Source: a virus
Taxonomy: Duplodnaviria > Caudoviricetes
Reading direction: 5' to 3' (one strand)
Virus record (IMG/VR): IMGVR_UViG_3300027820_000005
Location: 1-51,818 of that record
DNA length: 51,818 nt
The stretch's first letter is position 1. Every line of letters begins with the position of its first letter. Shown one piece after another: positions 6,633 through 46,557 of the stretch. The notes below the pieces were generated by a model, which ran no database searches, was not told the origin of the DNA, and saw only the letters and a program-made list of their open reading frames with translations. Made by a program: the position numbers and the translations under genes.

Positions 6633-6886
6633 TCGATCGGCTCAGTCTCGCCTTCTCGCGGCAGGAACGGGCGCACCGCGGCGTAGGTGCGCACCAAGTA
6701 CTTGAAGTCGTTGTCCTCGTCGAGCTTCTCGTGAAGCTCCCCGCGCGTGTAGCCGTCCACCTCGTCCATCATCATGTCGAGCGTGGCGTGGTCCACCTCG
6801 TCGACAGGATGCTCTCCGAGCAGGCTCTTGACGGTTGCGCAACTGAACAGCGGCAACACCAGGAACAGGGCGAGTACGGTCTTCAT
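6629..6886 (-). CDS. Putative lipoprotein (85 aa)
   Basis: MKTVLALFLVLPLFS-C signal peptide with lipobox-like Cys. Confidence 0.6.
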   Translation of the reverse strand: MKTVLALFLVLPLFSCATVKSLLGEHPVDEVDHATLDMMMDEVDGYTRGELHEKLDEDNDFKYLVRTYAAVRPFLPREGETEPIE

Positions 6887-9800: not shown

Positions 9801-12800
9801 GGCGCGGGATCATGAAGCTCGCGTCACCGGAGCGCATCTTCTCGTAGTTGTCGCGCTCGACCTTCTTGTTGTAGCGCCGCGGAACCCACTGAGACTCCCA
9901 GCGCGCGAACTGCGCGTCGGTGATCGCGCCCAGGTCGCGGAGCGCAATCCCCATCTCGTTCGCAACGGAGACGTACTGCTGCGCGACGTCGAAGAGGTAG
10001 CCGGTCCCCTTGCCGTACCGCTGCTCGACGTCCTCCGGCCCCTCCATGTGCTTGAACGCTCCGCTGTCGACGAGATCGTGCAGGCGCTTGCGGTCGCCCA
10101 TCGTCGGCATTTGACCGCCCCAGGCGCGAGTCCAGTTGTTCAGGACATGGTGCATCGCCGCCATCAGGTTCGCGTGCCGCGTCTGCGCCGGTCGGATCAC
10201 GTCGCGCACGGCGTCCTCGATGCGCTCCGCGACGGCCTCCTCCATCGTGTTGCCCTTCCACATGCGGCCCACGAATCGGTCGCTCTCCACGAACATGCGC
10301 CGCATCCGCCGCGGCATCTTCGGAAGGAGCGCGTTGTAGATCGTGCGCACGCGCCACTTCTCGGAGCCGGGCATTTGCCAGGGCTCTCCGCCCCACTCCC
10401 CGAAGCGGCCGCCACCCAGCGCCATCGAGATCGGGTCGAGCGAGTAGAGCATCGTCGCCTCGCGGCTGTCGACCCCGGCCTTCTCCGCGAGCTTGGCGAA
10501 GGCGTGGGCGAGGTGCGTCGCCATCTTCGTCGGCACGTCCGGGCGCAGGAGCCCGTCGTCGCCGAGCATCTTGTGGCGCTCGAGGCGTCGGCGCGTGCCC
10601 TCGGGCAGCTCGCCGGTCGAAGAGTCCATCACGTCGACGGCTTCCAGGTACGCCTCCACGGCGTCGGCGAGCTTCGCGTCCCCGGTCGAACGCGCGTAAC
10701 CGCGGATCGCAGAGCGCGCCAGGTCTTGGTACTCCTGGGCCGCCTGCACGTCCTCCTTGCTGGCCCCCTCGATCACACCGCTGGCGAGCTCGTTCATCGC
10801 CGCCTGAGCCTCAGCCATCCTCGGCAGGACGTCAGGCCCGACGACGCCGAGGGCCTGGAGGCGCTCGAACACCTGCTCCGCCTTGTACCCGAGGGTCTCG
10901 AACATGCGCACAGCTCGCAGCTCCGGCGAGGGCGCGCGGCTCAACAGCACCTCGAGGGCACCCTCGGCCGACTTGGCGGCACGCGCCTCGTCGGGGTAGA
11001 GCCTGTGGGCCATCCGCAGGCGTTCGGCGTCGGTCTCCGGCAGGTCGATGTACCCGGCCTCGAACCCTTCGCGCTCCTGCTCCACCTCGGCCGCCTCCTG
11101 ATCGGCAGCCAGGTCGTCGGCCAGGTTCTCGTACCCGGCATCCCCGGTGGCGTACACGGCGCCACCGTCCGCGGCGCGCTCGATCGCTTCGAGCAGGTCG
11201 TTGATGTCGGAGCCCTCGCGCAGGTAGCCCTCTTCGACGAGGGCTTCGCGCAGGTAGTCCAGCGACTCGGCCCCGCCCTTCTTCCGCAGGAACCCGGGAA
11301 GCGTAGCCTCCAGGCCGATCTGAGCGCCTCCGGCGCGCGGCGAGCGGCGCGACCCGGGGGTGTCGCCGTAGCGCTGGCGCAGGTCGCCCACCGCGGGCTC
11401 CTCGGAGTCGATGTTGATGCCGCCGCGCTCTCGAATCCGCGTGATGATGTCGGGCGGGTTCTTGTCTCGCCACCGCTTGTAGTTTGCGGCGGCCTGCTTG
11501 CGCCTGAACTCGCTGGCCTCCTCGCGCGCGAGCTGCTTGAACACCGCCTCTTGCGGACTCAGGCCCGCGTACGCCTTCTGTTTCTCCGTGCGCCGCGCCC
11601 GCGTGGCGATCTCCCCCGGCGACATGGCGTCGAGGCGTTCCTGGGCCCGCTTCTTCGCCGCCTGGATCGGCCCGAGGGTCGGCCCCTTCTTTTTCGGCTT
11701 CGCCGGCTTCGCCTCCGACAGATCCTTCTGGCGCGGCTTCTTGCCCACGCCAGAGGTCGGCGGAGCGACGGCCTCGCCGCCCTTGGGGAGCTCCGTTCGC
11801 TTCCCGCGCGAGCGCGCCTGTTCGGCTGCGATCACGGCCTCGCCGCCGGCCTCGGCCTCTTCGCTGGCCCCCTCGTACTCCAGCGTCGGGCCGTCCTCGC
11901 GGTCGGTCTGGTACTGGTTGCTGTACCCGGCCACGCCGTTCGCCTGAGCCATCGCGTCTTCGAGCGAGCCCCAGACCTTCGTGTTCCCGACGCGCTTTCC
12001 GCGCAGGTTGCCCGTCGCGTGCTCGATCGTGAACTGGTACTCACCCTCGGCCGTCGTGGGGCGGCGGCGGATCTGGTACTTGCCCCCGCGTTGCAGCCAG
12101 ACGTTCGCGCGCGGCGTCAGCGAGGTCACGAACTTGCCCCGGTGATAGCGTCCCCGCTCGAAGAACCCCGCCATCTCCTCGTTCCGCGCCGCGCTGCGCT
12201 TCGGCGGCGCCTGTTCCGTCAGCGGCTCGGGCGTCGGGTCGACGAACTCCTCGACGGGCGAGTAGTCCACGTCCTTGAAGTAGGTCGGATTCGCGGCCCG
12301 CAACTCCTGGAACCACTGAACCAGGCCCTCGAACTCCTTGCCGGAAGGGTCGACGGGGTGCGCGGCATCGTTGATGATCGAGGTCAGCGTCTTGGCGACG
12401 AACGTGCGCTGGTCCTCGGAGAGCCCCTTCGACAGCGAGTGGAGGTCGCGGCCCGCGTAGGCGGCGGTCGTGCTCATGAAGACCATCGCGTTCGCCAGGG
12501 CGTCCTCGCTGGCGACGTGCGAGAACATCGCCATCACCTGCTGCATCGGGGACAGCTCGTCGAACCCTTCCTCGCGGGCGGCGGAGGCGTAGCCCCCGAA
12601 CAGCGCGCCGACCCAGCCGGCGTCCCAGGCCCGGAGCACGCTCTCGGCGACCTTCGCGTCCTTGAACATGGCCCGCGCCTGTTTCTCCAGATCCACGCGG
12701 CCGCTCGGCAGGGACGAGATCAGGCTCTCGAGGTACTGGGGGGCGCCCGTGGCGTCGAGGGCGCGCAGCGCGTCCACGCGACGGTGCATCTTCATCGTCA

Positions 12801-14214
12801 GGAAGTGCAGCGGCTTTCCGACCTTGGATCGAGAGGCCCAGCCCAGGAAGGATCGGGCGCCCCCGGCGAGCTTCCCGAGACCGGCCTCGGCCGCGGCCTC
12901 GCCAACCCCCTGAGCGACGGCCTCGCCGGCGCCCTGGTCGTTGACGATCGCGGAGCGCATCAGCTCGTAGATCACCTCCTCGGAGACGTTCCGCGCACCG
13001 AACCGGACGCCCGACCAGTACTTGCCCAGGCTGTCGGCGCCGGCGAAGCCCGTGGACTTGACCAGGGCCCCGCCGATGCGCGCCGCCCCGGCCACCGCCG
13101 GCATCTTCGACTTGGAGAGCCCGGAGGCGATCTTCCCGCCACCTAGAGCCACGCCCTTGTTCACCGCAATGAACTCCCCCATCGCGATCCCCATGAACGC
13201 GGCCTTCTCCCAGAAGGTCTTGTCGAGCTCGCCGTCGCGCTGCAGGGCGACCAGCTCCTCGAGCAGAGCCCGCCGGTGCTCCGTCCGCTGGAGGTTGCTC
13301 ACCGTCTTCTCGCGCCAGTCGGGGCCCTCGGCCAGCCGCGGGAGCCAGGGAATCTCGCTCAGGTCCGGGAGGTCGAGCGGAACCTCGTAGTCCTCCCCCT
13401 TCTCTCCGAAGAGCTTGGGGATCTCCCCGGTGATCAGGCCCTCGTGCGCGAGGTTGCCGGAGCGCGGGTGCACACCGGAGAACGCCTCCCGGATCTCGTC
13501 GCGGTACTTCGAGTAATCGGGGATCGCATGGGGCACGCCATCAGCGACCGCCCATCGGGACCCGTCCGCGTCCTCGAACAGCGGCGACTCGTAGACCTGG
13601 CGCCGCCGGTTCGACTCCCCTTCCTTCCCGAAGGCCGGTGCGTTGAACACCTCGTCGGGGAGCTCGTACTTGTTGTCCGCCGAGCCCCAGAACCCGGCTT
13701 CGATCGCGGCTCCGTCCACCACGCGGCCGCGCTTGTAGTCCTCCCACGCCTTCGAGGGGCCGGAGACCGACAGGCCCTTGAGGGCGGATTTCAGGGCCGA
13801 TCGCCGCCGGAGGCCATCCAGCCCGCGGCCGGCCGCGTCGAGCTCCCGTAGCTCGCCCTGGACCGCCTGCAGCTCGCTCTCGATGCCCTGGACCTGGCCG
13901 ATGGAGCCGAGCCCGCTCTGACCCAGCACCTCGAGCTGCCCGTTCAGACCCTCGATCTTCTGCCGCGCCGCGGCGCGCCGCTGCTCGAGCTCGCCGGTCT
14001 CCTCGAGCCGAGAGAAGTCCAGCTCCCGGAGGAACCGCTTGGCGTGCTTCGAGAACTGCGGGTTGAACTCGTTGGCCTGCAGGTACCCGGCCCACTGAGC
14101 CGTCGCCTGACCAGCGAGCGCCTTGCGCTCCGGGTTCTCGGTGGTCAGGAACTCGGCGTGCGCACGCAGCCCGGCGTCCGCAAGCTGACCGAAAGTCTGG
14201 GGCTCCTGCGGCAT
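6883..14214 (-). CDS. Large internal virion / DNA ejection protein (2443 aa)
   Basis: Very long alpha-helical ORF in the podovirus ejection-protein position, after two smaller G/Q/A-rich genes. Confidence 0.7.
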   Translation of the reverse strand: MPQEPQTFGQLADAGLRAHAEFLTTENPERKALAGQATAQWAGYLQANEFNPQFSKHAKRFLRELDFSRLEETGELEQRRAAARQKIEGLNGQLEVLGQSGLGSIGQVQGIESELQAVQGELRELDAAGRGLDGLRRRSALKSALKGLSVSGPSKAWEDYKRGRVVDGAAIEAGFWGSADNKYELPDEVFNAPAFGKEGESNRRRQVYESPLFEDADGSRWAVADGVPHAIPDYSKYRDEIREAFSGVHPRSGNLAHEGLITGEIPKLFGEKGEDYEVPLDLPDLSEIPWLPRLAEGPDWREKTVSNLQRTEHRRALLEELVALQRDGELDKTFWEKAAFMGIAMGEFIAVNKGVALGGGKIASGLSKSKMPAVAGAARIGGALVKSTGFAGADSLGKYWSGVRFGARNVSEEVIYELMRSAIVNDQGAGEAVAQGVGEAAAEAGLGKLAGGARSFLGWASRSKVGKPLHFLTMKMHRRVDALRALDATGAPQYLESLISSLPSGRVDLEKQARAMFKDAKVAESVLRAWDAGWVGALFGGYASAAREEGFDELSPMQQVMAMFSHVASEDALANAMVFMSTTAAYAGRDLHSLSKGLSEDQRTFVAKTLTSIINDAAHPVDPSGKEFEGLVQWFQELRAANPTYFKDVDYSPVEEFVDPTPEPLTEQAPPKRSAARNEEMAGFFERGRYHRGKFVTSLTPRANVWLQRGGKYQIRRRPTTAEGEYQFTIEHATGNLRGKRVGNTKVWGSLEDAMAQANGVAGYSNQYQTDREDGPTLEYEGASEEAEAGGEAVIAAEQARSRGKRTELPKGGEAVAPPTSGVGKKPRQKDLSEAKPAKPKKKGPTLGPIQAAKKRAQERLDAMSPGEIATRARRTEKQKAYAGLSPQEAVFKQLAREEASEFRRKQAAANYKRWRDKNPPDIITRIRERGGINIDSEEPAVGDLRQRYGDTPGSRRSPRAGGAQIGLEATLPGFLRKKGGAESLDYLREALVEEGYLREGSDINDLLEAIERAADGGAVYATGDAGYENLADDLAADQEAAEVEQEREGFEAGYIDLPETDAERLRMAHRLYPDEARAAKSAEGALEVLLSRAPSPELRAVRMFETLGYKAEQVFERLQALGVVGPDVLPRMAEAQAAMNELASGVIEGASKEDVQAAQEYQDLARSAIRGYARSTGDAKLADAVEAYLEAVDVMDSSTGELPEGTRRRLERHKMLGDDGLLRPDVPTKMATHLAHAFAKLAEKAGVDSREATMLYSLDPISMALGGGRFGEWGGEPWQMPGSEKWRVRTIYNALLPKMPRRMRRMFVESDRFVGRMWKGNTMEEAVAERIEDAVRDVIRPAQTRHANLMAAMHHVLNNWTRAWGGQMPTMGDRKRLHDLVDSGAFKHMEGPEDVEQRYGKGTGYLFDVAQQYVSVANEMGIALRDLGAITDAQFARWESQWVPRRYNKKVERDNYEKMRSGDASFMIPRHDISRKAGKPAGWAERIWDPFVVFPSAAAQEGKVAEVLEILHGLKSEGYAVPWSEAKGWVPWTKDSYAVGAWADGGKDGYDPLSKWRVKGASLRLHAFLSSIKNSMAPEGVQPTGTQRPRTPQMVELLDAYLGVNGEPGLVLPLKLVDEIDLALSDFYDAPTSVQSLRNAADSGHVVEYAGKRLDQFSRWWRRSVTIQNPVHWSLNIGSSVMTNHLWGAADIGDFVRSVFTGKGHYADAWKTIIKAEEWWEIGKPGRGGTVVPPELLERGWTLRDWAAVQQLEQAAEILTGGTFRKTAFDVSIAGEMFQPMIRAQTKGKGQNVVLDSMDAMLAYQENMAGSTARVDAALIRAFGGMNMGAKIQAGADLYQAYALTELGFKYAATLAAIRSGRFTDIRKAATWAAQGTADYGNTSPLLRRWSTRFAIASSPLVRQTERHPFIKQAARFALANPFQLYSQNMRPTMLWAAVARPQAAFGIYALVKIMQEGLFRMFADNPDEEQDFYEAIDSTPGYEALGFSREEAEAMYRALESVPKPRGPAGIPVALGQAAQRALLRHWLFAPGPRKGARTQTTDLADMAPGIGTLQRAWHDLGAVPNRSAMENVRAFNRNFMGYQAHVMLSPITLVGDFVSGLGKRTATEQAARAVEELTGSVPFLNPATMPFSRQARRWAEAAAGQSFQDWAAGMEPIYEQPAGERMTEAAFGTVWNLRKASPYNDVLSESGLGRAMISQFMAPNLGPANEDVARQELAGKLFARAYASMQREAYAQWTRNEEMTPGFDQFREPLLNLSRDVELRLNADGRYDLLDVPEHSTPIGKWVARQPAELQSDLIDLWVGVTTSERWASGPGLVIEQAARSKAMDPLMYERLLLSAMSDPEDRGLIKYMDRKIRDNDVEDPGLFYAVYQKLGAPSETGASEAYRRIGKYFAGLSDVVFNKPNPAKDIPNLMKLLGGDAPEVAPVKKSYDLMTRSRQ

Positions 14215-16095: not shown

Positions 16096-17828
16096 AGAAC
16101 GATGATGTCCACGCCTACCTCGCGTTCGCCTTGCTCGACGACTTCGAGGCCGATCTGGTCGTAGTTTTCGAGGTGCACGTCCGTCGAGGACGCCCCTACG
16201 ATATCCCCCGACTTCACACCCATGAAAGGCAAAGCCTGGACGATCAGCGAGAAGCTCGTATCCGAGGGCCTCAAAGACCCGATGTCCCGGAACTTGAACG
16301 GCGGCCCCTCGACGTAGTTGCCGCCCGACGGCGCCGTGCCCTTGGTGGCGAGCGCGGCCTCGTCTAGCGTCTCGTAGTCGTCGATCGACAGCCCCGCGCT
16401 CTGATCAGCGAAGACGAGCGAGGCGGTCGTTGGGGCCTCGTACTCGAGCCCCGGAGGCGCCGTCGCCACGAGACCCGCGGCGTTCCCTGCGAGGTGCGGA
16501 AACCACTGGGAAAACCTGCCGTTGAGCATGGGGAAGAGCTGCTTCTCGGTCCGACCGGTCGGGATCGAGAACGAGAACCCCTCGATCCTGGCGATGTAGT
16601 CGGCGGTCGGCACCAGGGGCCCGGACGTCGAGTCGTTGTCGAACGCCTGGAACATGACGGGGGGGTCCGTCTCGAATTCCTGCGTCACCTGAACGTCCTC
16701 GAAGAACACCGGGTCCGCATTCGACAGGATTCCCGTGAGGAGCGAGTTCGTCGCGTCCACGTTGTCCATATCGCCGTCGCGCGCGCGGTTCGAGCCCGGA
16801 GAGTCGCCCTTGTAGGCCGCGAAGACCGCGACCGGTGGGCGCCCGAACAGGAGAGGGATGCCGCGGATCACGATTCCGTACTGGACCTCCGTGATGCCGT
16901 TCCACGCCTCCACCTTGTCGCTCGAGGCCAGGTGACGCAGCCCCATGACGCCGAGCCGCACGCCTGGCGTGATGATCCGGTAGCGAACAGGCCCCGGCCG
17001 CGCCACGTAGTCGCGCGGGAGCGAGTAGCTCACCACGTCCCAGATGCGCCCCGGCCCGTCCTTGGTTCCCTCCGCCCACCTGTCGACACCGCCGGCCGGC
17101 GCGATCTTGAGCTCGATGGCCTCCTCCGACTGAGGCCATCGCGACACGAAGGCGTTGAGGCTGAACGGGTCGAGCTTGTGAGCCTCGATCGAGCCCGGCG
17201 CCAGCACCGCGCCGTCGACGGAGTTGGCCGGGAACCGAACGCCCCCGTTGGCGACTTCGCGAAGCTCGAGGGCAACCTGGAGCGCGAAGGACTCCAACGT
17301 CTGCTGGGCAACCTTGGAGTCCCACTCCTCCGGCAGATCGTCGAGCGTCATCGGAATGCCCGAGGCCGACGTCTCGCCGCTATTCACCACGCCTCCGTCG
17401 CGAACGGAAGCCACCTGGCTCGCAACCTCCGAGGCGTCCTCGGCGTCAGGATCGCCGGATGGGCGTGATAGGTTCACGTCCACGATGTCGGCGCCGGCCG
17501 CGGCGCCCAGGAGGTTGCCGTACTCCCCGCCACTCCAGTCCTGATCGGGATACCTCTGCGCGAGGAACGCCTGCGCTTCGGCCTCGCTGATGCGGCCGTC
17601 GCGCACGAGAAGGACGACGAGGTTCAGGTCCTGGATCGACTCGACACTCGTCGCGCGCGCCGCATCCAGAACGCCGGTGTCGTAGAGGTAGCCGGGAACG
17701 TCCACCAGAGGACTTGAGCGGCCCCCCTTGCTGCGCGGTCGGTTGTTGGCGAGCGCGACGTTTAGCCGCTTGTAAGCGCTCGCGTATTGCGCGATTTCGT
17801 TCGCGCGCTCGTCCTGCAGGTAGGGCAC
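16092..17828 (-). CDS. Virion structural protein (578 aa), tail-associated
   Basis: GTG at 17828 overlaps the upstream TAG; NSVDGAVLAPGSIEAHKL fibre-like motif. Confidence 0.6.
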   Translation of the reverse strand: MPYLQDERANEIAQYASAYKRLNVALANNRPRSKGGRSSPLVDVPGYLYDTGVLDAARATSVESIQDLNLVVLLVRDGRISEAEAQAFLAQRYPDQDWSGGEYGNLLGAAAGADIVDVNLSRPSGDPDAEDASEVASQVASVRDGGVVNSGETSASGIPMTLDDLPEEWDSKVAQQTLESFALQVALELREVANGGVRFPANSVDGAVLAPGSIEAHKLDPFSLNAFVSRWPQSEEAIELKIAPAGGVDRWAEGTKDGPGRIWDVVSYSLPRDYVARPGPVRYRIITPGVRLGVMGLRHLASSDKVEAWNGITEVQYGIVIRGIPLLFGRPPVAVFAAYKGDSPGSNRARDGDMDNVDATNSLLTGILSNADPVFFEDVQVTQEFETDPPVMFQAFDNDSTSGPLVPTADYIARIEGFSFSIPTGRTEKQLFPMLNGRFSQWFPHLAGNAAGLVATAPPGLEYEAPTTASLVFADQSAGLSIDDYETLDEAALATKGTAPSGGNYVEGPPFKFRDIGSLRPSDTSFSLIVQALPFMGVKSGDIVGASSTDVHLENYDQIGLEVVEQGEREVGVDIIVL

Positions 17829-20800
17829 TACCGCACGTCCGCGTCCTGGCCGCGGAGCGCAATCTCCACCAGCTCCAGGTCGACGTCCGCGGCCGCGTAG
17901 TCGAGGTAGAACCGGAACTTCACTCTCCGGCCCTTGAGCTGGTTGATGTCGAGGCTCGCGTACCCGTACTGACCGGAGCCCGAGTCGAGCCTGTGCGTGC
18001 AGTCCAACAGGTCCGTTGCGTCGTCCATGTCGAGGAACGCCTGAACCTTCACCGATCCGTTTGAGATCGCGTGCACGAAGTCCAGGTAGCGGAAGCTCTT
18101 GCTGTTCTCGATGCGCCCAAGGTCGAGCCACCCCGTCTCCCAGTAGGCAACGCGGGGACCGATTCGGACAGGCGGGCTCGGCTCACTCGCCATCTTGACG
18201 GGAGCCGTGAGGTGGATGGCCGAGTTCGTCGCGAACAGCGCCGTTCCGTAGGAGTTCTGACCCCAGTAAACCGGGCATCCTCGGATGCCCTCCAACTGCT
18301 TGTCGATCGAGGTCCCGCCGATCGAAATGTAGCTGTTGCCCACGACGACTCCGCTCGAGCCGGGCGCGGTCACTCCCCAGATCGAAGAGTCGCCTCCGAT
18401 CATGATGCGGCGCGTATCGCTCCGGTCCAGCCACACGACGAACCCCTCTTCGGTGCCGCCAATCAGGCGCTCGGTCCCGCCGCCAACTGGATTCACGACA
18501 CCCAACGCCGTGACGTTGGGGTGCCGAAGCCTCCCGAACCTGTGGAGCGCCGGCATCTTCCGACCGGTTGACACACCCGACAAGGCGTTGTCGTACTCGG
18601 TCGTGATGCGCACTTGGGGGCTCTCCTCGCCGGCCGCCTGCAGCGCCATGACGTACTGGTTCCTGCGCTTGTTGATCGCCGCAGAGGCTCGGTTGAGCTC
18701 GCGCGCATCGACGCTCACCAGTCCGGTCCCGTTGAAGAATGCGTCGACGCTGTGAGCGATCCATGCCGGAGTGCCGGCGCCCGTGTAGACGTACGGCCCG
18801 CGAGCGGCGAGGCTGTAGAGCCGATCGTCGAGACTCTCGGCCGTCTGGTGCGCAGAGCACCCCACGGAGTTGGTCACTTCCTCGACCAGCGCGACCGCGC
18901 CGCGGACCACGATCTTCGCGACGTAATCGCCCTTGTAGACGATCAGCTTCCCCCGGTGCCCGCGCATCGCGCGGATAGCGTCGGCCCCACCCGCGTTGAT
19001 GACGACGAGGTTCGTCGGCGGAACCGAGAACGGACTGGCGAACTGCGAGTAGGCGATCCCGTCTGGCTGCTCGCGGTCGCCGGCAATCCTCCCGTAGAAC
19101 ATCGCCCCCTGGCTGGACGCGACAACGTGACAGTCGGGCGGGTCGAGGTTGTCGAATCGAAGCGCCTCACCAAGAGCTAGCGGGTCGTCCGTCAGCCGGA
19201 GCTCGACCGAAGTCGACTCGTTGTCCGGGATGATCTTCTGCAGGAAGAACGCCGAGCCCCCTGGCTGCGTCAGGTAGACGCGGCGCTGAACCTGCTCGCC
19301 ATCCACCGAGATCGGGAGACGCCGCAGCAACAGCCGCACGTCTCCGGCCGGGTTGTTCACGTCCTCCGCTTCCGGGACGACGGTCAGCGGCGGGCCTGGG
19401 AAGCTCGTGAGACCGAGAGTCGGGTCGTGGAACGCAACACGAACGAGGCGCCGCGCACGGAAGAGCGTGGGTTGCCGGATGTACTCGACTCGCAGCGGAA
19501 GAGCGTTAACGCTCGACTCCGTGCTGAGCGCCACCTCGAGCTCCTTGTTGGGCAACACCTTTGCCGTGACGTCCTGTTCGGACCCACCGGCCGCATAGGT
19601 ATTCGTGTGCACCGACGCGAAGCAACTACCTCCCGCCGTGCGCAGCGGACCGGGGGCGGTAGCAGACGACATCAGAGCGTTCAGATCGTCAGACCCCATC
19701 TCGAGCGCGTCGTCGAGCGGAGGATCTCCGGCCGCGGCCTCGAAGATCACCGTGTTCGCGCTGAGCGAAGTGACGTGATAGGCGAAGGAGTCGAACTTCC
19801 CATCGAACGGCGTGATGCCAGTTGCCGGGTCGCGCGCCAGTTGCGAGCCGAACAATTCGATGTCGTACGGACCGGGGTCGGGCCTCGATGCGTTGTCGAA
19901 GTCGGGAGACTTAACGAGCGAGACCCCGCTGAACACCGCGCCTCCGTCACCAGAAAGAGAGCTCAGGTCTGGAGTCGATCCATCCAGAGCCTTCACCGTC
20001 ACCGTGTCCGGGCTCGCGTCCGTCCAACCTGTGATGACGTACGGCTGCTCGAACCCCGACGTCACGTCGTCCGGGTCGAACCAGAAGAGCATCCCGACAT
20101 GATCGGGGTGGAAGTACTGCGAGCTTGGAGTGATGACACCGGATGCGTTGCCGCTGAACGTGATGCCCGCCGAACTCTTGAGGGAAACCATGCCCGTCGC
20201 CGGTATGTTGGGCATGTCGCCGTCCCGGTAGTCGCTAGTCGTGAACGACACCGCCATGCGGCCGCCGGCCTTGTGCGACCACCACGGGCGCTTGACGTCC
20301 GTCGCCAGCTCCTGGTCGAGCTCGCGCACGACGAACAGATCCTTGCACTCGCCGGCCGCGTCATCCAGGTAGACGGAGTTGATCCAGTTCCCCTCGTCGG
20401 CGTCTCGTTCGGGCCAACGCTTGCGAACATAGAGGTAGTTCCAGTACCCGGCTCGCACGACCGGGACGTTGGTCGAGATCGAGACCTCTTTCTTCAAGTC
20501 CAGGTCGAACCATCCGAACACAACCTTCCCGTCGCGCACTTCGACGAAGGGTCCTCCGGCGTCCACACCTCTGCGCTGCGAGTAGAGCGGGATCCGCCCA
20601 TGCGTGTTCCGCAGCATGAAGTAGCACTTGAACGCGAAGATGTCGCGGGAGCCACCGTCCGGGAACTCCCACGCCATTTCCTTGTGGTACGTCTGGCGCA
20701 GGAACCACGTCCCCGGGTTGTCGAAGTGGTACCGCTGGTCGGCCTGGTCCGCGCTCACATCGGCGTCCTGCAGGGGAGTGACGAAGCTTCCCGCCACATA

Positions 20801-23800
20801 GTCCGCGTCACCGACGCGCGGCGTGTTCCGAGCCAGGATCGGCTTTCGGATGATGTCGGCCACGAGCTTTGACGTCGGCGGAAGGAGCCCACAGAACCGA
20901 GCGCCCTCCGCGTCACCGATGAACGCCGGCCGACCTCCGTTCGCGACGAAGATCCGCTGGTTGTGCACGGCCATCGACGTCTGCTCTTCGCTTGCGCCCA
21001 TGTCGTGCTTCATCGAAATGAAGGGATGCGACATGACGACGCCGAGCCCCACGGCCGAGGCCCCGATCCCGGTCTGAGCGTTCGTGGCTAGAGAGTCGCC
21101 GGCGTCAAAGCACAGGTGTCCGACGCCCTCCTGCAAGTCCGCGCGGAATCTAACGTCGTACTCCGGCACCGAGTAGTCGATCGCGAACGGGTCGTAGTTG
21201 GCACCGGACCCAGAACTCAGGTCGCGGCGAACGACGGCCACGCCAGCCAGGCGCCCCACGAGGCCGTCGACCACCCCCATTCTGTTTCCGCGCCGGATGA
21301 TGCGCCCTCCGAGCTCGTCGATCAGGAACGTCGGGTTGTCCGGGAAGAGCTCCTCCATGCCCCGCGAGGCTCCGAGCCAGAGCTGGAACTGCCGGTCGGT
21401 CTCGGGCGTGTACTGCCCGGTCGTCACGGAGTCGATCCACGGGTTCGCGGAAGGCGAGGCGTTCGTCGATGCGTTGACCGTAACGGCGTCCCACGGAGAG
21501 TCACCAGGGCGGCGCTTGCCATGAATGAAGAAGCGCGGGTAGTTCGCATCCCCGAGAACGAACTCGATCTCGACGCGAAGGTGTACCCACTCTCCCGCGG
21601 GCACCGTCTCCTTGTCAGAGGCGATGTACTGACCGTGCTCCGGTGGGCCGGATCCGCCGCTGTAGCTCTGCGGAGACCCGATCCCGAACTCCTGGCGCCC
21701 GTTGTTGATCCTCCAGAACCAGCGCAGCTTCCGGTCGTTCTCGGTGTCCGACGCCGAGCCACCAGCGACGTCCAGGCCGTGCTCGACGCTACCGTGCCAT
21801 GCGATCGTCTGAGTCCCCTCGACGGATTCCAGGTACACCCAGGCGTCGAACTGCCAGACCTTGTTGTTGGTCCCCGGCCCATAGATGAAGTCGGCGTTGC
21901 GGCTCACCTTCCACGCAACGTAGTCCTTCTGCCCGGGAAGGAAGTCCAGGCTACTGTTCAGATCGTCGGTCGGCCCTTCATCCCGCCATCGGTCGTCGAC
22001 GTTGAACAGCGCTCCGCGCGCACTCGCGTAGACGTTCTCGTTCAGGTTCTTGAGGCCGAGGATCCGGTTCGCGCGAGGCGCGCTCAGGCCGCGCGTCCAC
22101 ATCCTGGCGACCCCCGCGATCGAGCCGCCCGCGACCGGAGAGAAGATCGAGAGGCCGAAGTTGCCCGTCACCGGAGCCCGGTTGAAGAACAGGTTGGGCA
22201 CCACAACGGCGTCCGACGCCTTGGTGGTCCCGGGCTTGAACGGAACGCCGCCACCGAGGGCGATCGGCTTCCTCGAGATACCGTCACCGAAGGCCGTGTA
22301 GCCCACGACGCGGAAGGAGTAGGCCGTGACCGAGGTTGCGGTCGCCGTCCTGATCGGAGTGACCGTAGCGAGAGAAGCGCCGCCAGAGGCCACCGATCGG
22401 ATGCCGTAGAACTCCTCCTGCCTCGTCGGAGCATCGCGCCCACCGCTCCGAACGAACTCGTCTCCGTTCACGAGCAGGTAGGTCCCCTGGATCCCCTCGC
22501 TGTCCTCCGCTGAGTCGACCGTGCTGAACGCCTGGTTCGATGAGGCCGTGACCGTCTGCGATCCCTCGACCACGTTCGCGACCTTCGAGTTGGGGGAGAT
22601 CGCCTGCAGCAGATCGGAGGCTGAGAGCTCCCGCAGCGGCAAGCCGCGGCCGGCGGAGAGCTTGCCGTTGTCGTCGACGAGAGGGCTTCCGTTCGACGTG
22701 CCTATGGCGCCAGGCGCGGCCGAGGCGAACACGCGCACCTCGTCCACGATCATCCGAGCGCGCACCTCCGAGTATCCGAGCCCGGTCGGGTCGGCGCACC
22801 CACCGATCGTCACAACCGACCGCAACAGGTCTTTCTTGCTGATCGTGACGGCCGTAGGCGACGTCCCGAGGTTCTGCTCTTGCCCGAAGTACTGAATCTC
22901 GCCCTGCGCCGGGCTCACGCCAGCCGACGCCGTGGAGATGAGACCGACCGGCTTCCCGGCCAAGTAGACGTGGAACTGATCTTCCGTCCCAGTTGGATGC
23001 ACTCCGATCTGGATGGTGACTGCGTTCCCCACCCACGGAGCGTCGGTATCGAACGTGAACCCATCCGTCGTGTTGTGCACGCCGTTCACGGGAAGAAGCG
23101 GGTCTCCCGAGTTGTCGGCCCCGTAGGAGCACAGCGCCTGGAACATCATGGGCGCGCGTGTCGGGTTCGCGCCGGAAGCCGATGTCCATATGGCCCGGTG
23201 CGTAAGCTGCATCAGCGGCTTCGGTGACGTGTGGTGCCCCGACTCGTCGGGAGCGCGAACGTCCCACGACGCCAGGCATGGCGCGTAGGAGCCGACCCTG
23301 CGACCGCTTTCGGTGGCGTGCGTGACCGACTTGCCGTAGATGGCCTCCGGCATCGTCACGGTGAGCTCGATGGCGAACCCGGCCTTGCCCGTCCTGAGAA
23401 GCTGCTGAAACTCGCGGCCGAACACGGGGTTGTCGGACAGGTCGAGCTCGATGGCCTCACCCTCGCCGGAAAGAAACAGGCTCTTGCGGCCGCGCGTGCC
23501 TCGATCAGATACGCCAAGTCCGAACGGCGCGAGGTATGCGTCGTTGCCGCCCACCAGCTCGCGCACCGTTCCGCCGCCGGCGTCGTCCATCGGCCAGTAG
23601 CTCGCGAGCGTGTCGAGGTCGGGCTCCGTCGGATCGTCCAGCTCGACGGTCGAGCGGAGGCTGAACTCTACGCGGTCGTCCGCGTAGTCACGCGGCGCGC
23701 TGTAGACCCTCACGTCTCCAATCACGAGGTCACGCTGGTTCCACCGGAACGCTTGGATCAGGCAGTAGGGTTGAGACGAGAAGGACCCCGAGAAAGCGGA

Positions 23801-25372
23801 AGCCCCTGTCGGGTTGTGCACCTGGAACTGCACGTTGCTCGAGTTGTGCGTCGACCCGCTGATGGTCATTACGCCGCCAGGCAACACGGCGTTCGCGGCC
23901 GACGAATCGCTGGTGAAGATCAGCCGATACCCGTTCAGAGCTTCCGCGTTCAAGATCGAACTGAGCGCGCCGTACCCGGCCCAGATCCCGGTCCATCCGA
24001 GTGGAGACGTCGTGACTCCCGCAGCCAGGAGGCCCGCCTGGTCGCACTCGATCTCGTCGGTGCCCGTGTAGTTGAACGTGAACCCGTAGGCCCCCGAGCC
24101 GTAGAGTTGCTCGGCCGTCAGGACGGATCGGTCAACCAGGCGGTGCCCGCCGTGCTCCATCGGAGCCGAGTCCATTCCGTACGGGATGTAGCCCTGGTCC
24201 CCCAGTGACGCCTGCCGATAGCCGAGCCCCCCGAACATCGCGTCCTTTCCCTGGTATCGGACGCCGTACTTGACGAGGTACTCGAGCGAGTCGGCCGGCC
24301 CCTTGTTCACCCAGACGCCGCCGCCGCCGTTGTTCATGCCGGGGGCCCACTCGAACGTCTCCAGGTTGTTGTAGTCCTCGACGACCTGGAAGCGCACGGC
24401 GCCGTCGTTGTTCCAGTCCGTCGAGATCACATCCGAGGCGTCGACGACGGATCCGCTGTCGAGCTCGAGCTGGACGGCAACGTGGTACGTTCGCCCCGGC
24501 TCGATGAACTTCTCGCACACGATCGAGCGGAGAGCCTGCGAGCCCGCGACCGCGCTCCCGTCGAGCCCACCGTCGTAGACGGTTCCGTTGTCGAGCCGAT
24601 AGGCGAAGTCGTCGGCGCTGTCCTGGCCCCAGGCCGGCGAGTCGAGCCACATGAAGCACAGGGCGTACGGGCTCTGTCGCGGCAGCTCCTTGGGCGGGTT
24701 CGCCTCTCCGTAGAGGTCCGCCAGCCAGTAGAACGGCGACCGTGAACCGGCGTTCGATGAGTTCTTCGGGGCCGCTCCCGTGTTCACGATCGCGAGCGCC
24801 CAAGACATCGGGGACGTGCGATCGCCGCCCTTCTGCAAGATGCACACGCAGTCGTCCAGGGCCTCGTTCGCACCGTAGTTCGCGCGGAGCGAGTCGTTGC
24901 CCGAGGTCTGGCTCGCTCCGTCTCCGAAGTGAAAGCCGGGCAAGAGGTCGACGTCCTCTGGCACCTTGAAGCTGACCTTGATCTCGAAGCTCCTCCCCCG
25001 GGCCGTGTGATAGCGACCGGACGGGAACGTGCCTTCGCTCTTGAAGAGTCCGCCGATGTCCGACTTCTCGCTGTAGGGGAAGAAGACGTAGTTCCGCAGC
25101 GGGACGGACCGCAGCGACGAGTCCGAGCTGTTGATGCTCGTGGAGAGCGGGGAGAAGCCGGGGTCGACGCTCGTGCGCACCGCGCTTCGCGGCGCGACCT
25201 GGTTGTTGAACTTGAGGCACCCGCCCGACGAGTGCACCGAGTCCCGATCGAACTCTACGTTCTCACAGTCCGGTGTCTCGTTGGCCGCGATCGCCGTGGG
25301 GTGCCGAGAGTCGTTGAGCCCGCCCGCGAGGTTCGTCAGCCGCTCGGGCTCCCTGTAGTGACTCTTCGGCAT
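17828..25372 (-). CDS. Tail nozzle-like protein (tail tubular B / P22 gp10-like) with LamG-like insertions (2514 aa)
   Basis: N-terminal LAGGLN..AIAANETPDCENVEF and C-terminal AYWETGWLDLG..KSFRYL nozzle-like motifs; internal YWPMDDAGG and FDAWVY..GEWVHL LamG-like motifs. Confidence 0.7.
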   Translation of the reverse strand: MPKSHYREPERLTNLAGGLNDSRHPTAIAANETPDCENVEFDRDSVHSSGGCLKFNNQVAPRSAVRTSVDPGFSPLSTSINSSDSSLRSVPLRNYVFFPYSEKSDIGGLFKSEGTFPSGRYHTARGRSFEIKVSFKVPEDVDLLPGFHFGDGASQTSGNDSLRANYGANEALDDCVCILQKGGDRTSPMSWALAIVNTGAAPKNSSNAGSRSPFYWLADLYGEANPPKELPRQSPYALCFMWLDSPAWGQDSADDFAYRLDNGTVYDGGLDGSAVAGSQALRSIVCEKFIEPGRTYHVAVQLELDSGSVVDASDVISTDWNNDGAVRFQVVEDYNNLETFEWAPGMNNGGGGVWVNKGPADSLEYLVKYGVRYQGKDAMFGGLGYRQASLGDQGYIPYGMDSAPMEHGGHRLVDRSVLTAEQLYGSGAYGFTFNYTGTDEIECDQAGLLAAGVTTSPLGWTGIWAGYGALSSILNAEALNGYRLIFTSDSSAANAVLPGGVMTISGSTHNSSNVQFQVHNPTGASAFSGSFSSQPYCLIQAFRWNQRDLVIGDVRVYSAPRDYADDRVEFSLRSTVELDDPTEPDLDTLASYWPMDDAGGGTVRELVGGNDAYLAPFGLGVSDRGTRGRKSLFLSGEGEAIELDLSDNPVFGREFQQLLRTGKAGFAIELTVTMPEAIYGKSVTHATESGRRVGSYAPCLASWDVRAPDESGHHTSPKPLMQLTHRAIWTSASGANPTRAPMMFQALCSYGADNSGDPLLPVNGVHNTTDGFTFDTDAPWVGNAVTIQIGVHPTGTEDQFHVYLAGKPVGLISTASAGVSPAQGEIQYFGQEQNLGTSPTAVTISKKDLLRSVVTIGGCADPTGLGYSEVRARMIVDEVRVFASAAPGAIGTSNGSPLVDDNGKLSAGRGLPLRELSASDLLQAISPNSKVANVVEGSQTVTASSNQAFSTVDSAEDSEGIQGTYLLVNGDEFVRSGGRDAPTRQEEFYGIRSVASGGASLATVTPIRTATATSVTAYSFRVVGYTAFGDGISRKPIALGGGVPFKPGTTKASDAVVVPNLFFNRAPVTGNFGLSIFSPVAGGSIAGVARMWTRGLSAPRANRILGLKNLNENVYASARGALFNVDDRWRDEGPTDDLNSSLDFLPGQKDYVAWKVSRNADFIYGPGTNNKVWQFDAWVYLESVEGTQTIAWHGSVEHGLDVAGGSASDTENDRKLRWFWRINNGRQEFGIGSPQSYSGGSGPPEHGQYIASDKETVPAGEWVHLRVEIEFVLGDANYPRFFIHGKRRPGDSPWDAVTVNASTNASPSANPWIDSVTTGQYTPETDRQFQLWLGASRGMEELFPDNPTFLIDELGGRIIRRGNRMGVVDGLVGRLAGVAVVRRDLSSGSGANYDPFAIDYSVPEYDVRFRADLQEGVGHLCFDAGDSLATNAQTGIGASAVGLGVVMSHPFISMKHDMGASEEQTSMAVHNQRIFVANGGRPAFIGDAEGARFCGLLPPTSKLVADIIRKPILARNTPRVGDADYVAGSFVTPLQDADVSADQADQRYHFDNPGTWFLRQTYHKEMAWEFPDGGSRDIFAFKCYFMLRNTHGRIPLYSQRRGVDAGGPFVEVRDGKVVFGWFDLDLKKEVSISTNVPVVRAGYWNYLYVRKRWPERDADEGNWINSVYLDDAAGECKDLFVVRELDQELATDVKRPWWSHKAGGRMAVSFTTSDYRDGDMPNIPATGMVSLKSSAGITFSGNASGVITPSSQYFHPDHVGMLFWFDPDDVTSGFEQPYVITGWTDASPDTVTVKALDGSTPDLSSLSGDGGAVFSGVSLVKSPDFDNASRPDPGPYDIELFGSQLARDPATGITPFDGKFDSFAYHVTSLSANTVIFEAAAGDPPLDDALEMGSDDLNALMSSATAPGPLRTAGGSCFASVHTNTYAAGGSEQDVTAKVLPNKELEVALSTESSVNALPLRVEYIRQPTLFRARRLVRVAFHDPTLGLTSFPGPPLTVVPEAEDVNNPAGDVRLLLRRLPISVDGEQVQRRVYLTQPGGSAFFLQKIIPDNESTSVELRLTDDPLALGEALRFDNLDPPDCHVVASSQGAMFYGRIAGDREQPDGIAYSQFASPFSVPPTNLVVINAGGADAIRAMRGHRGKLIVYKGDYVAKIVVRGAVALVEEVTNSVGCSAHQTAESLDDRLYSLAARGPYVYTGAGTPAWIAHSVDAFFNGTGLVSVDARELNRASAAINKRRNQYVMALQAAGEESPQVRITTEYDNALSGVSTGRKMPALHRFGRLRHPNVTALGVVNPVGGGTERLIGGTEEGFVVWLDRSDTRRIMIGGDSSIWGVTAPGSSGVVVGNSYISIGGTSIDKQLEGIRGCPVYWGQNSYGTALFATNSAIHLTAPVKMASEPSPPVRIGPRVAYWETGWLDLGRIENSKSFRYLDFVHAISNGSVKVQAFLDMDDATDLLDCTHRLDSGSGQYGYASLDINQLKGRRVKFRFYLDYAAADVDLELVEIALRGQDADVR

Positions 25373-45528: not shown

Positions 45529-45752
45529 TGGATGCTCAGCTTGCAATGCAGGGGATCCCGGGCTCTATCATCGGGCCCGCCAAGCGTTACCGCTCGAAGG
45601 AAGCGGCCGAGCGCGCGGCGTCTGGCCTCGCTCTTGGTGAGCGTGACGGCTGGACGTACACGGCGAAGCGAGTCGGCTCACCGTTGGTGGTCCGTCGCTG
45701 GGTCGTCGAGGTGCGCGACGAGCGCGGAGAGTTCGCGGGGTACTGGTCATGA
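45528..45752 (+). CDS. Hypothetical protein (74 aa)
   Basis: TGATG coupling; 3' 65 bp duplicated at 46713. Confidence 0.6.
   Translation: MDAQLAMQGIPGSIIGPAKRYRSKEAAERAASGLALGERDGWTYTAKRVGSPLVVRRWVVEVRDERGEFAGYWS
45688..45752 (+). repeat. 65-bp exact direct repeat (copy 1)
   Basis: Identical to 46713-46777. Confidence 0.95.
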
Positions 45753-46033
45753 CCGCGCAACACACTCCGGGGCCGTGGCGACTGACGACGCTCCCCGAAG
45801 GGCGCTGGGTTGAGGTCTACGGCGGCCATCCCGAAGACGACGTGGCGCAAGCTGTCGGCGTTCCCAACGCGCGCCTTATCGCTGCCGCACCCGAGCTACT
45901 GGAAGCGCTGGAACGCATTTCGGCCATCGGTGAATGGCTCGATGATGACCAGGATGTCTTCGCTGCGTGCTACCGAACGTGGGTCATCGAGGCTCGCGCA
46001 GCTATCGCTAAGGCTAAGGGGGGCCGGGAATGA
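45749..46033 (+). CDS. Phage hypothetical protein of the HTPGPW family (94 aa)
   Basis: HTPGPW..NARLIAAAPELLEAL..ARAAIAKA. Confidence 0.8.
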   Translation: MTAQHTPGPWRLTTLPEGRWVEVYGGHPEDDVAQAVGVPNARLIAAAPELLEALERISAIGEWLDDDQDVFAACYRTWVIEARAAIAKAKGGRE

Positions 46034-46245
46034 GCACCCTAACCTGCGAGACGTGCGGCGCGCCCGCCGGGGCTGGCGGGATTGCTTGTCAGCCATGCTA
46101 CACAGCTAGACTTGAAAGCCTGCTAGCTACGCGCGCATGGCGCGAGAACGCATCAACGCGAGCCGGAGATATGCCCGGCGAATCCATGCTGGATACCGTA
46201 CAGCGCGAAGTCTCACGTATGCGTAGCGCCGAAACCCCCTCCTAG
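46030..46245 (+). CDS. Small Cys-motif protein (71 aa)
   Basis: CETC..CQPC; ATGA overlap. Confidence 0.55.
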   Translation: MSTLTCETCGAPAGAGGIACQPCYTARLESLLATRAWRENASTRAGDMPGESMLDTVQREVSRMRSAETPS

Positions 46246-46292
46246 GGGGTCCGGGAACCGATGGCCGGGTTCCCGCTGATGATGGCAGGCCA
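46228..46292 (+). ncRNA. Type II hammerhead ribozyme with loop I / 3'-tail pseudoknot
   Basis: GCC-GAAA-[CCCCCT/AGGGGG]-UC-[CGGGAACC/GGTTCCCG]-CUGAUGA-U-GGC; loop UGGCC pairs with GGCCA (46288-46292). Confidence 0.9.
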
Positions 46293-46329
46293 ACCTACAC
46301 GCACCCTAGATACGACTGGACATCGAATC

Positions 46330-46557
46330 ATGACCGAGAAGACCTACAACGGCTGGACGAACTACGAAACGTGGAACGTGGCACTCTGGATCGGCAACGA
46401 CGAGGGGCTCTACAACATGGCCCGTGAAGCCGGTAGCTACCGAGCGTTCACGGGCATGATGCGCGACTGCGAATGCACCGAAACGCCCGATAGCGTGGCC
46501 TGGAACGACTCCGGGCTCGACCTGGACGCGCTCGAAGAAATGGTGGCCGAGCTGTGA
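46330..46557 (+). CDS. Phage early protein of the YNGWTNYETW family (75 aa)
   Basis: TYNGWTNYETWNVALWIGNDEGLY..ETPD.VAW. Confidence 0.8.
   Translation: MTEKTYNGWTNYETWNVALWIGNDEGLYNMAREAGSYRAFTGMMRDCECTETPDSVAWNDSGLDLDALEEMVAEL

Follow-up and report, generated by a model that had tools for sequence, protein, structure and literature searches.

Results

A type II hammerhead between two small genes

The window analyzed in this work, that is, the whole stretch of 51,818 bp, is one complete IMG/VR virus record (IMGVR_UViG_3300027820_000005) with direct terminal repeats and a G+C content of around 66%. Small genes on the + strand run from approximately 38 kb to its end and into positions 1-6 kb. 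Between two of them, encoding a 71-aa protein with four invariant cysteines and a 75-aa protein of the DUF7249 family, lies an element that is almost certainly a true type II hammerhead ribozyme (Table 1). The ribozyme is placed in the sense strand between these co-directional genes and fills the only intergenic gap in a gene run that otherwise overlaps by 4 nt; the ATG of the four-cysteine gene overlaps the stop of the preceding ORF (45749-46033, phrog_1273) in an ATGA, and the gene after DUF7249 again overlaps by 4 nt. The ATG of the DUF7249 gene is located 78 nt past the predicted cut and 37 nt past the pseudoknot strand. On the - strand, no ORF of at least 40 aa crosses the ribozyme.

A previous reading of this DNA, made from the letters alone and referred to here as the sequence-only reading, had described a complete type II hammerhead with a pseudoknot between loop I and the 3' tail. 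The Infernal search against Rfam proposed there was carried out with all 4227 families and returned a single match above any gathering score in the whole 51.8-kb genome, Hammerhead_II (RF02276) at 46227-46294 (+), with 41.4 bits against a gathering score of 37, an E-value of 3.9e-5 and the complete model aligned (1-66 of 66). RF02276 run alone against the genome gave an E-value of 9.2e-9, and a permissive Rfam scan of the window (E up to 1) added nothing except a weak mir-598 noise match. All coordinates, stems, triplet, core residues, extra U and loop complementarity given previously agreed base for base with the sequence, and the distances assigned to the predicted cut (6 nt after the stop of the upstream ORF and 78 nt before ATG 46330) were correct.

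The conserved core (C3 U4 G5 A6 N7 G8 A9 and G12 A13 A14) is complete in the window ribozyme, and so are the A15.1-U16.1 pair (A46234-U46250) and a residue other than G at H17 (C46251) present. G46284 and C46230 (G10.1-C11.1) are able to pair, but U46283 is inserted after A9; apart from this extra U, which is common, the core shows no deviation. Both stem I and stem III are capped by loops and stem II is open, which is the type II permutation, and stems III and I were present in the minimum free energy (MFE) and centroid folds of both the 68-nt element and a 221-nt context. The thermodynamic z-score of the isolated 68-mer (-1.41) was non-significant with a folding program that works without pseudoknots; this value says little because the DNA has 66% G+C and the program is unable to form the pseudoknot. 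The ribozyme is probably active.

Table 1. Position of the ribozyme parts and flanking genes in the window, and of hammerheads in locus L139 and in Streptomyces phage Issmi.
Feature	Position	Strand	Evidence or remark
Upstream gene, 71-aa protein, four invariant cysteines	46030-46245	+	HMMER homologues
Type II hammerhead, whole	46227-46294	+	RF02276, full model
Stem II 5' strand GCC (positions 11.3-11.1)	46228-46230	+	Partner 46284-46286
Core G12 A13 A14	46231-46233	+	Sequence and Rfam alignment; no variation in the 43-sequence MAFFT alignment
A15.1	46234	+	Pairs with U16.1 (U46250)
Stem III hairpin, 7 bp, loop CCU	46234-46250 (46234-46240/46244-46250)	+	A15.1-U16.1 plus six more pairs
Cleavage triplet G46249 U46250 C46251 (C17 = 46251)	46249-46251	+	Cut predicted at 46251/46252 when aligned with the consensus of the family
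Stem I hairpin, 8 bp, 8-nt loop GAUGGCCG	46252-46275 (46252-46259/46268-46275)	+	
Loop I pseudoknot strand UGGCC	46262-46266	+	Fully complementary to GGCCA
Core C3 U4 G5 A6 U7 G8 A9 (CUGAUGA)	46276-46282	+	Sequence and Rfam alignment
Extra U between A9 and G10.1	46283	+	Insert relative to the Rfam model
Stem II 3' strand GGC (positions 10.1-10.3)	46284-46286	+	Sequence
Pseudoknot 3' strand GGCCA, one A after stem II	46288-46292	+	Five Watson-Crick pairs with loop I
Downstream gene, DUF7249 / phrog_871, 75 aa	46330-46557	+	PF23907 2.6e-19; phrog_871 8.1e-24
L139 type II hammerheads	706-780, 1239-1311, 1582-1657, 2035-2110		
Issmi hammerheads 1-6, L136 (= NC_054667.1 40694-50643)	1420-1484, 1812-1874, 2313-2378, 2893-2955, 3152-3236, 3889-3952		Rfam
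Issmi hammerheads 7-11, L136 (= NC_054667.1 40694-50643)	4486-4555, 5194-5257, 6212-6278, 7037-7101, 9095-9159		Rfam

A phage-borne subclass with an extra U in the core

Relatives of the ribozyme were searched in IMG/VR with an exact 17-mer composed of CUGAUGA, the extra U, stem II and the pseudoknot strand, leaving stems I and III free. The 17-mer occurred 56 times in 54 loci, and a complete hammerhead was found upstream of it in 53 of these occurrences, the exceptions being loci L096, L097, and L134 (our numbering). Whole records were scanned with Infernal for 50 of the 54 loci (50 records), and RF02276 was over its cut-off in 47; the three without a match were the records of L083, L096, and L097. 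The insertion is not restricted to hammerheads selected through the 17-mer, since 47 of 83 others from the same loci carry one nucleotide inserted after A9, a U in 45 of them. The extra U is the majority state among the phage type II hammerheads collected here, and extra-U and U-less forms coexist in one cultured phage genome (Issmi). Position H17 was C in 113 members of the class, U in 9, and A in 1. As summarized in PMC3705267 from De la Pena & Flores 2001, the hammerhead of the viroid CChMVd tolerates an extra residue between A9 and G10.1, and a U inserted there makes trans-cleavage 3-4 fold faster than the natural A. The window ribozyme belongs to this phage-borne subclass with an extra U after A9 and a pseudoknot between loop I and the 3' tail.

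The same 17-mer was present in at least 120 loci of bacterial and archaeal genome contigs. A hammerhead signature was located upstream in 17 of 120, in metagenome-assembled genomes as well as in isolates and in several phyla; the remaining loci are in line with chance 17-mer matches in 596 Gb.

Covariation and chance controls

Covariation was assessed on 43 distinct sequences, the window included, collected through the shared 17-mer. RNAalifold recovered stems I, II, and III from a MAFFT alignment of this set, with double changes in 13 of 17 pairs. A gap-free count anchored on GAAA, the cleavage site, and CUGAUGA was preferred, because MAFFT puts the GUC of the window one column to the left of the other rows. 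In this count 544 of 559 cells paired, vs. 225-245 when the 3' partner was slid by 1-2 bases, and 53 pair types were obtained in the structure vs. 28-42 with the slid partners. Several pairs of stem I in the window (CGGGAACC/GGUUCCCG) differ from those of other members with pairing intact. Stem II (GCC/GGC) was invariant in all 43 sequences, its GGC side being fixed by the search pattern, and is therefore uninformative for covariation.

The pseudoknot strand was likewise fixed by the search in this set, and variants come from other hammerheads of the same and later loci. Compensatory combinations were UGGCC/GGCCA, UGACC/GGUCA, UGGGC(A)/(U)GCCCA, UGACG/CGUCA, UGGCU/AGCCA, and, in L139, CAGGCUA/UAGCCUG. 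A helix of at least four Watson-Crick pairs between loop and tail was possible in 91 of 124 sequences, compared with 41% of deliberately mismatched loop/tail combinations. Stems I and III thus co-vary strongly, and so does the pseudoknot. A hammerhead descriptor of our own yielded 149 matches in the 835,840 bases of the fetched loci plus the window, and none in reversed copies of them.

Genes around the ribozymes of the subclass

Flanking ORFs were analyzed within fixed ranges only (-60 to +30 for the upstream stop and -5 to +60 for the downstream start). In 33 of 46 distinct upstream ORFs the stop was placed from 12 nt before the ribozyme to 1 nt into it, and the base preceding GCC was often supplied by the stop codon itself; only the ORFs of the window (+18) and L119 (+15) overlapped the ribozyme by more than 1 nt. 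The 45 distinct downstream ORFs started 11-50 nt after GGCCA, 37 of them with a Shine-Dalgarno-like motif. This tight succession of stop, ribozyme, ribosome site and start is regular across dozens of unrelated phage contigs. The genes themselves varied: those downstream included five Mu-type transposases, three HTH_17 proteins, two DUF7249 proteins and one DNA methylase, and those upstream included DUF7178, Cro/C1-type HTH proteins, and IstB-like ATPases. The Mu-type transposases (approximately 650-680 aa, with HTH_Tnp_Mu_2, rve, and Mu-transpos_C domains) are encoded directly downstream of the ribozyme in L086, L088 (= L102), L108, L119, and L132; these loci belong to transposable phages, unrelated to the window phage.

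The four-cysteine gene and the ribozyme junction

An exhaustive HMMER search with the protein encoded upstream of the window ribozyme gave 30 homologues at E ≤ 1e-3 (best 1.9e-15), mostly of 64-87 aa. No Pfam or PHROG family matched it, and a word-index search and viral-contig scans were empty. Residues C6, C9, C20, C23, W37, and G46 were invariant in a 15-sequence alignment, and because these four cysteines, the tryptophan, and the glycine are kept among homologues, the ORF is judged to be a real conserved gene; its product is probably a zinc-ribbon-like phage protein. The family, of about 65-85 aa and with two CxxC pairs, is absent from Pfam and PHROGs. The overlap between the end of this ORF and the 5' arm of the ribozyme, pointed out in the sequence-only reading, therefore concerns a genuine gene: its last 18 nt are the 5' arm, and its stop (UAG, 46243-46245) falls in the loop and 3' strand of stem III. 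The codons that overlap the ribozyme encode a non-conserved tail, homologues aligning to residues 4-66 of 71.

Since no close phage relative was found, conservation at the exact site could be checked only through this upstream gene. Homologues of the four-cysteine protein were encoded in five metagenome loci, and a type II hammerhead was present at the same junction in one of them (L139). There, a homologue with 47% identity is followed by a hammerhead that begins at the stop codon of the gene, and three more hammerheads lie within 2.2 kb. The junction ribozyme of L139 is without the extra U and has a different pseudoknot of 7 bp, and no synteny with the window was detected in the flanks beyond the four-cysteine gene. 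Thus, of the conservation and covariation that had been proposed as a test of the ribozyme, the part concerning the subclass was borne out for stems I, III, and the pseudoknot, and the part concerning the precise junction held in one of five homologue loci. Such patchy presence fits ribozymes being gained and lost where genes meet.

In L139, the 3' half is the same in the first and third units, and their short leaders are similar. In addition, CGAATCATGA, a 10-base sequence of L139 whose end falls in the region of the downstream start, is identical to window positions 46323-46332, which may be due to chance or to a shared unit of ribozyme plus leader.

A link between hammerheads and the DUF7249 gene was considered and rejected. 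Among 80 IMG/VR loci with DUF7249 relatives, one weak descriptor match on the wrong strand was obtained (L077), and RF02276 was found in none of 50 whole records (L002-L051 of the 80). DUF7249 is directly downstream of the ribozyme in two of the 45 subclass loci, the window and L104. The latter is a complete record of 38.8 kb whose only hammerhead is at 9292-9364 (-), with the DUF7249 gene at 9035-9277 (-).

Phages with many hammerheads

When the 86-nt element was compared with cultured phages by BLAST, only weak matches were obtained (E around 3), pointing to Streptomyces phage Issmi (NC_054667.1, Arquatrovirinae). The last 9,950 bp of this genome contain 11 hammerheads over the Rfam threshold. 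All 11, none of which is annotated, occupy gaps between small annotated genes, two of them sharing one longer gap; the distance from the preceding stop is 0-44 nt for 10 of the 11, and that to the following start is 10-24 nt, again for 10 of the 11. BLAST suggests similar hammerheads in phages Marav, Paolo, Puginator, and Zainub. A full-text search, out of whose reach most subscription journals lie, found no published account of hammerheads in Streptomyces phages or actinobacteriophages, and arrays of many ribozymes in cultured actinophages are perhaps less familiar.

Comparable arrays appeared in IMG/VR. Five near-complete records of 49-53 kb and 67-68% G+C presented 9-12 RF02276 matches each, on one strand and within around 10 kb, and an 18-kb fragment presented 11. 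These many-hammerhead records are probably relatives of the Issmi group. The portal protein of the window gave no match in any of the five, an empty answer that is weak evidence on kinship. Records listed with hammerhead arrays are L106, L107, L121, L122, and L128 (G075, G076, G090, G091, and G097, respectively), together with L090 (G059), L089 (G058), and L126 (G095).

Discussion

Proposed role of the ribozyme

Taking the evidence as a whole, the explanation that we consider probable is that an active hammerhead of the extra-U subclass splits a co-directional transcript. The ribozyme would be transcribed within the + strand block of small genes, and stems III and I would form in its RNA, along with a short, open stem II and the pseudoknot of 5 bp, positioning the core. 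The transcript would then cut itself between C46251 and C46252, parting the mRNA of the four-cysteine gene from that of the DUF7249 gene and the genes that follow. Owing to the type II topology, stem III, a G+C-rich hairpin, is expected to stand at the end of the upstream product, which would carry a 2',3'-cyclic phosphate. The downstream product should start flush at the hairpin of stem I, bearing a 5'-OH but lacking any single-stranded overhang. Hammerhead cleavage leaves a 2',3'-cyclic phosphate on the upstream product and a 5'-OH on the downstream one, and in bacterial mRNA decay hairpin-capped ends with these groups are expected to slow 3' exonucleases and 5'-end-dependent RNases. Both ends would be poor RNase substrates, and separate stability and translation would therefore be possible for the two groups of cistrons. 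Transcription through the ribozyme, cleavage in the cell, and these consequences are what we infer from the arrangement of the locus.

The sequence-only reading had placed the ribozyme inside an early operon. The designation of the gene block as early is plausible, as suggested by the co-directional small genes, by an AT skew that is positive over 38-51.8 kb and 1-6 kb, and by a gene for a YqaJ-type recombinase 4 kb downstream of the ribozyme. The flanking genes would belong to one transcription unit; over 44.5-48 kb no promoter-like sites were found, and there was a single terminator-like site, fewer than expected by chance.

Several observations weigh against this explanation. The margin over the Rfam threshold is just 4.4 bits, low within the range of the subclass (37-69 bits). 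Stem I, with 8 bp, is one pair above the mode of the subclass (7), and its 24-nt hairpin length is common to only L087 and L110; in the work of Perreault et al. 2011 (PMC3088659), activity fell when stem I was extended by two pairs. The pseudoknot-free MFE fold has GCC paired to the second GGC, which lies within the pseudoknot strand, and this register might compete. Members of the covariation set share the 17-mer, so that their descent may be shared too, and the cleavage site used in the anchor-based count was whichever candidate paired best. No close relative of the window phage is present in the collections searched: its capsid protein had no kin in IMG/VR viral contigs, its portal gave only matches of 22-24% identity in Arthrobacter and Cellulosimicrobium phages (24% for the Arthrobacter portals), and DNA similarity to known phages was limited to about 85 nt of the DUF7249 gene. 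In four of the five loci with a four-cysteine homologue, the next gene follows directly with no hammerhead there. By the definition used, no Shine-Dalgarno-like motif precedes ATG 46330, and a search for sequencing runs that contain this stretch listed one DNA run, from which the window may derive, and no RNA run. The effect on stability and translation is deduced throughout, and a 2019 review describes the purpose of bacterial and phage hammerheads as still undefined and in need of more work (PMC6765202).

Alternative explanations

The window element could resemble a hammerhead by chance, or be the decayed remnant of one, and be unable to cleave, a view to which its small margin over the Rfam threshold, its single copy in the genome, and the non-significant folding z-score would lend themselves; in the study of Perreault et al. 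2011 (PMC3088659), 4 of 18 candidates conforming to the consensus were inactive in vitro. We regard this as highly improbable, given an E-value of 3.9e-5 across all Rfam families, 17 nt at the 3' side identical to those of a subclass with full hammerheads at 53 of 56 occurrences, a core without deviation but for the common U, an intact 5-bp pseudoknot, no descriptor matches in the reversed decoys, and a sense orientation in the only intergenic gap of the neighborhood. An active hammerhead might instead be a selfish or neutral passenger, perhaps carrying a short leader, which spreads among the junctions of unrelated phages through selection at the level of the element, or arrived recently, with no benefit for the phage. 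This would account for a subclass found in phages that are not kin (the window portal being without a match in the five many-hammerhead records) and also in bacteria of several phyla (17 of 120 genome loci examined among at least 120), for the heterogeneous flanking genes, for the presence after the four-cysteine gene in one of five loci, and for DUF7249 genes that are usually without a ribozyme (none of 50 records, and no convincing match in 80 loci). Self-cleaving ribozymes are moreover described as common in selfish elements (Perreault et al. 2011, PMC3088659). But the highly regular packing of stop, ribozyme, ribosome site, and start resembles integration into gene expression, as do one-strand arrays of 9-12 in compact genomes, and the window copy shows no repeat, target-site duplication, or mobility gene; on balance a passenger seems unlikely.

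The sequence-only reading had also suggested that translating ribosomes could gate folding. Ribosomes finishing the upstream gene at UAG 46243-46245 would hold the 5' arm unfolded, and cutting would track translation of that gene. The upstream ORF is real and terminates inside stem III, an overlap of more than 1 nt that among the 46 upstream ORFs it shares only with L119, and in most members the stop is close enough for a terminating ribosome to cover the 5' arm, taking the size of the footprint from general knowledge; regulated cleavage was raised for phage hammerheads by Perreault et al. 2011 (PMC3088659). Yet no result obtained here favors gating specifically. Compaction of the genome alone predicts tight packing, the overlapped codons encode the non-conserved tail, as if the ORF simply ran to the first stop inside the ribozyme, and cleavage is still expected once the ribosome departs. 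We consider gating quite improbable. A broader conjecture, which we find rather doubtful, is that the type II permutation is selected at phage junctions precisely as it caps both products, so that the ribozymes act as natural mRNA insulators for each cistron, with ribosome-timed, translation-gated cutting in addition in the window phage. Synthetic insulators of the RiboJ type place a hammerhead before a ribosome-binding site, which leaves a defined 5'-OH hairpin end and uncouples the gene from upstream sequence; RiboJ was engineered from the ribozyme of a plant satellite RNA, and its resemblance to the window is a functional analogy only.

Relation to known hammerheads

The publication of Perreault et al. 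2011 (PMC3088659) covers type II hammerheads with their pseudoknot, how abundant they are near phage genes, and the idea that they process polycistronic mRNA. The window ribozyme shares with the elements described there and with RF02276 the capped stems I and III, the open stem II of 2-3 bp, the core, the kind of pseudoknot, and a habitat in phages, prophages, and metagenomes. It departs from the RF02276 consensus in the extra U between A9 and stem II and in a stem I of 8 bp instead of the usual 7. The statement of the sequence-only reading that pseudoknots of this type support fast cleavage agrees with the same article, according to which the loop I/3'-tail pseudoknot is needed for it (PMC3088659).

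The location in the sense strand between co-directional phage genes is as in the prophage hammerheads of Agrobacterium tumefaciens (the ardA triple), Clostridium scindens, and Azorhizobium caulinodans, for which cutting of long transcripts into gene- or operon-length mRNAs was proposed (PMC3088659). In those prophages the hammerheads form clusters of two or three that cleaved in vitro, and tandem ones, those of A. tumefaciens, also in Escherichia coli (PMC3088659), whereas the window has a single copy known from its sequence. HHphage, from the lytic haloviruses HF1/HF2, is similarly found just before a start codon, in the section of early genes, and the mapped 5' end of a halovirus transcript is no more than 3 nt from the hammerhead site (PMC3088659). 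HHphage, in contrast, has atypical insertions near C3 and stem I, needs high salt, and is 13 nt from the start (PMC3088659), vs. 37 nt from the ribozyme end in the window. The CChMVd (+) hammerhead carries its inserted nucleotide at the same core position as the window ribozyme, but it belongs to a viroid, is of type III, and serves in the processing of replication intermediates (PMC3705267).

The window copy is one more example and leaves the role of bacterial and phage hammerheads as it was. The yield of the comparison lies in the regular architecture of stop, ribozyme, ribosome site, and start, in an extra-U core variant that is the majority form, and in Streptomyces phages with around 11 ribozymes in 10 kb. 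Phages such as Issmi could be a tractable system for learning what these ribozymes do.

Further observations on the window genome

The Pfam match of the DUF7249 protein covers residues 3-75 on profile positions 2-86 of PF23907. The reading frame of this gene is open back to an ATG at 46261, in loop I (window 46261-46557, +), and two ATGs within CUGAUGAUGG (46279 and 46282) share this frame. In principle, translation of the cleaved downstream RNA could yield versions of the protein with an extended N terminus; the short form starting at 46330 is the typical one, because the Pfam match begins at its residue 3. Codon-position G+C over 45.7-46.3 kb did not discriminate coding from non-coding sequence and failed even for the PHROG-matched ORF. 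The structural-gene block of the window contains two very long ORFs, at 6883-14214 (-) and 17828-25372 (-), of 2443 and 2514 aa, respectively.

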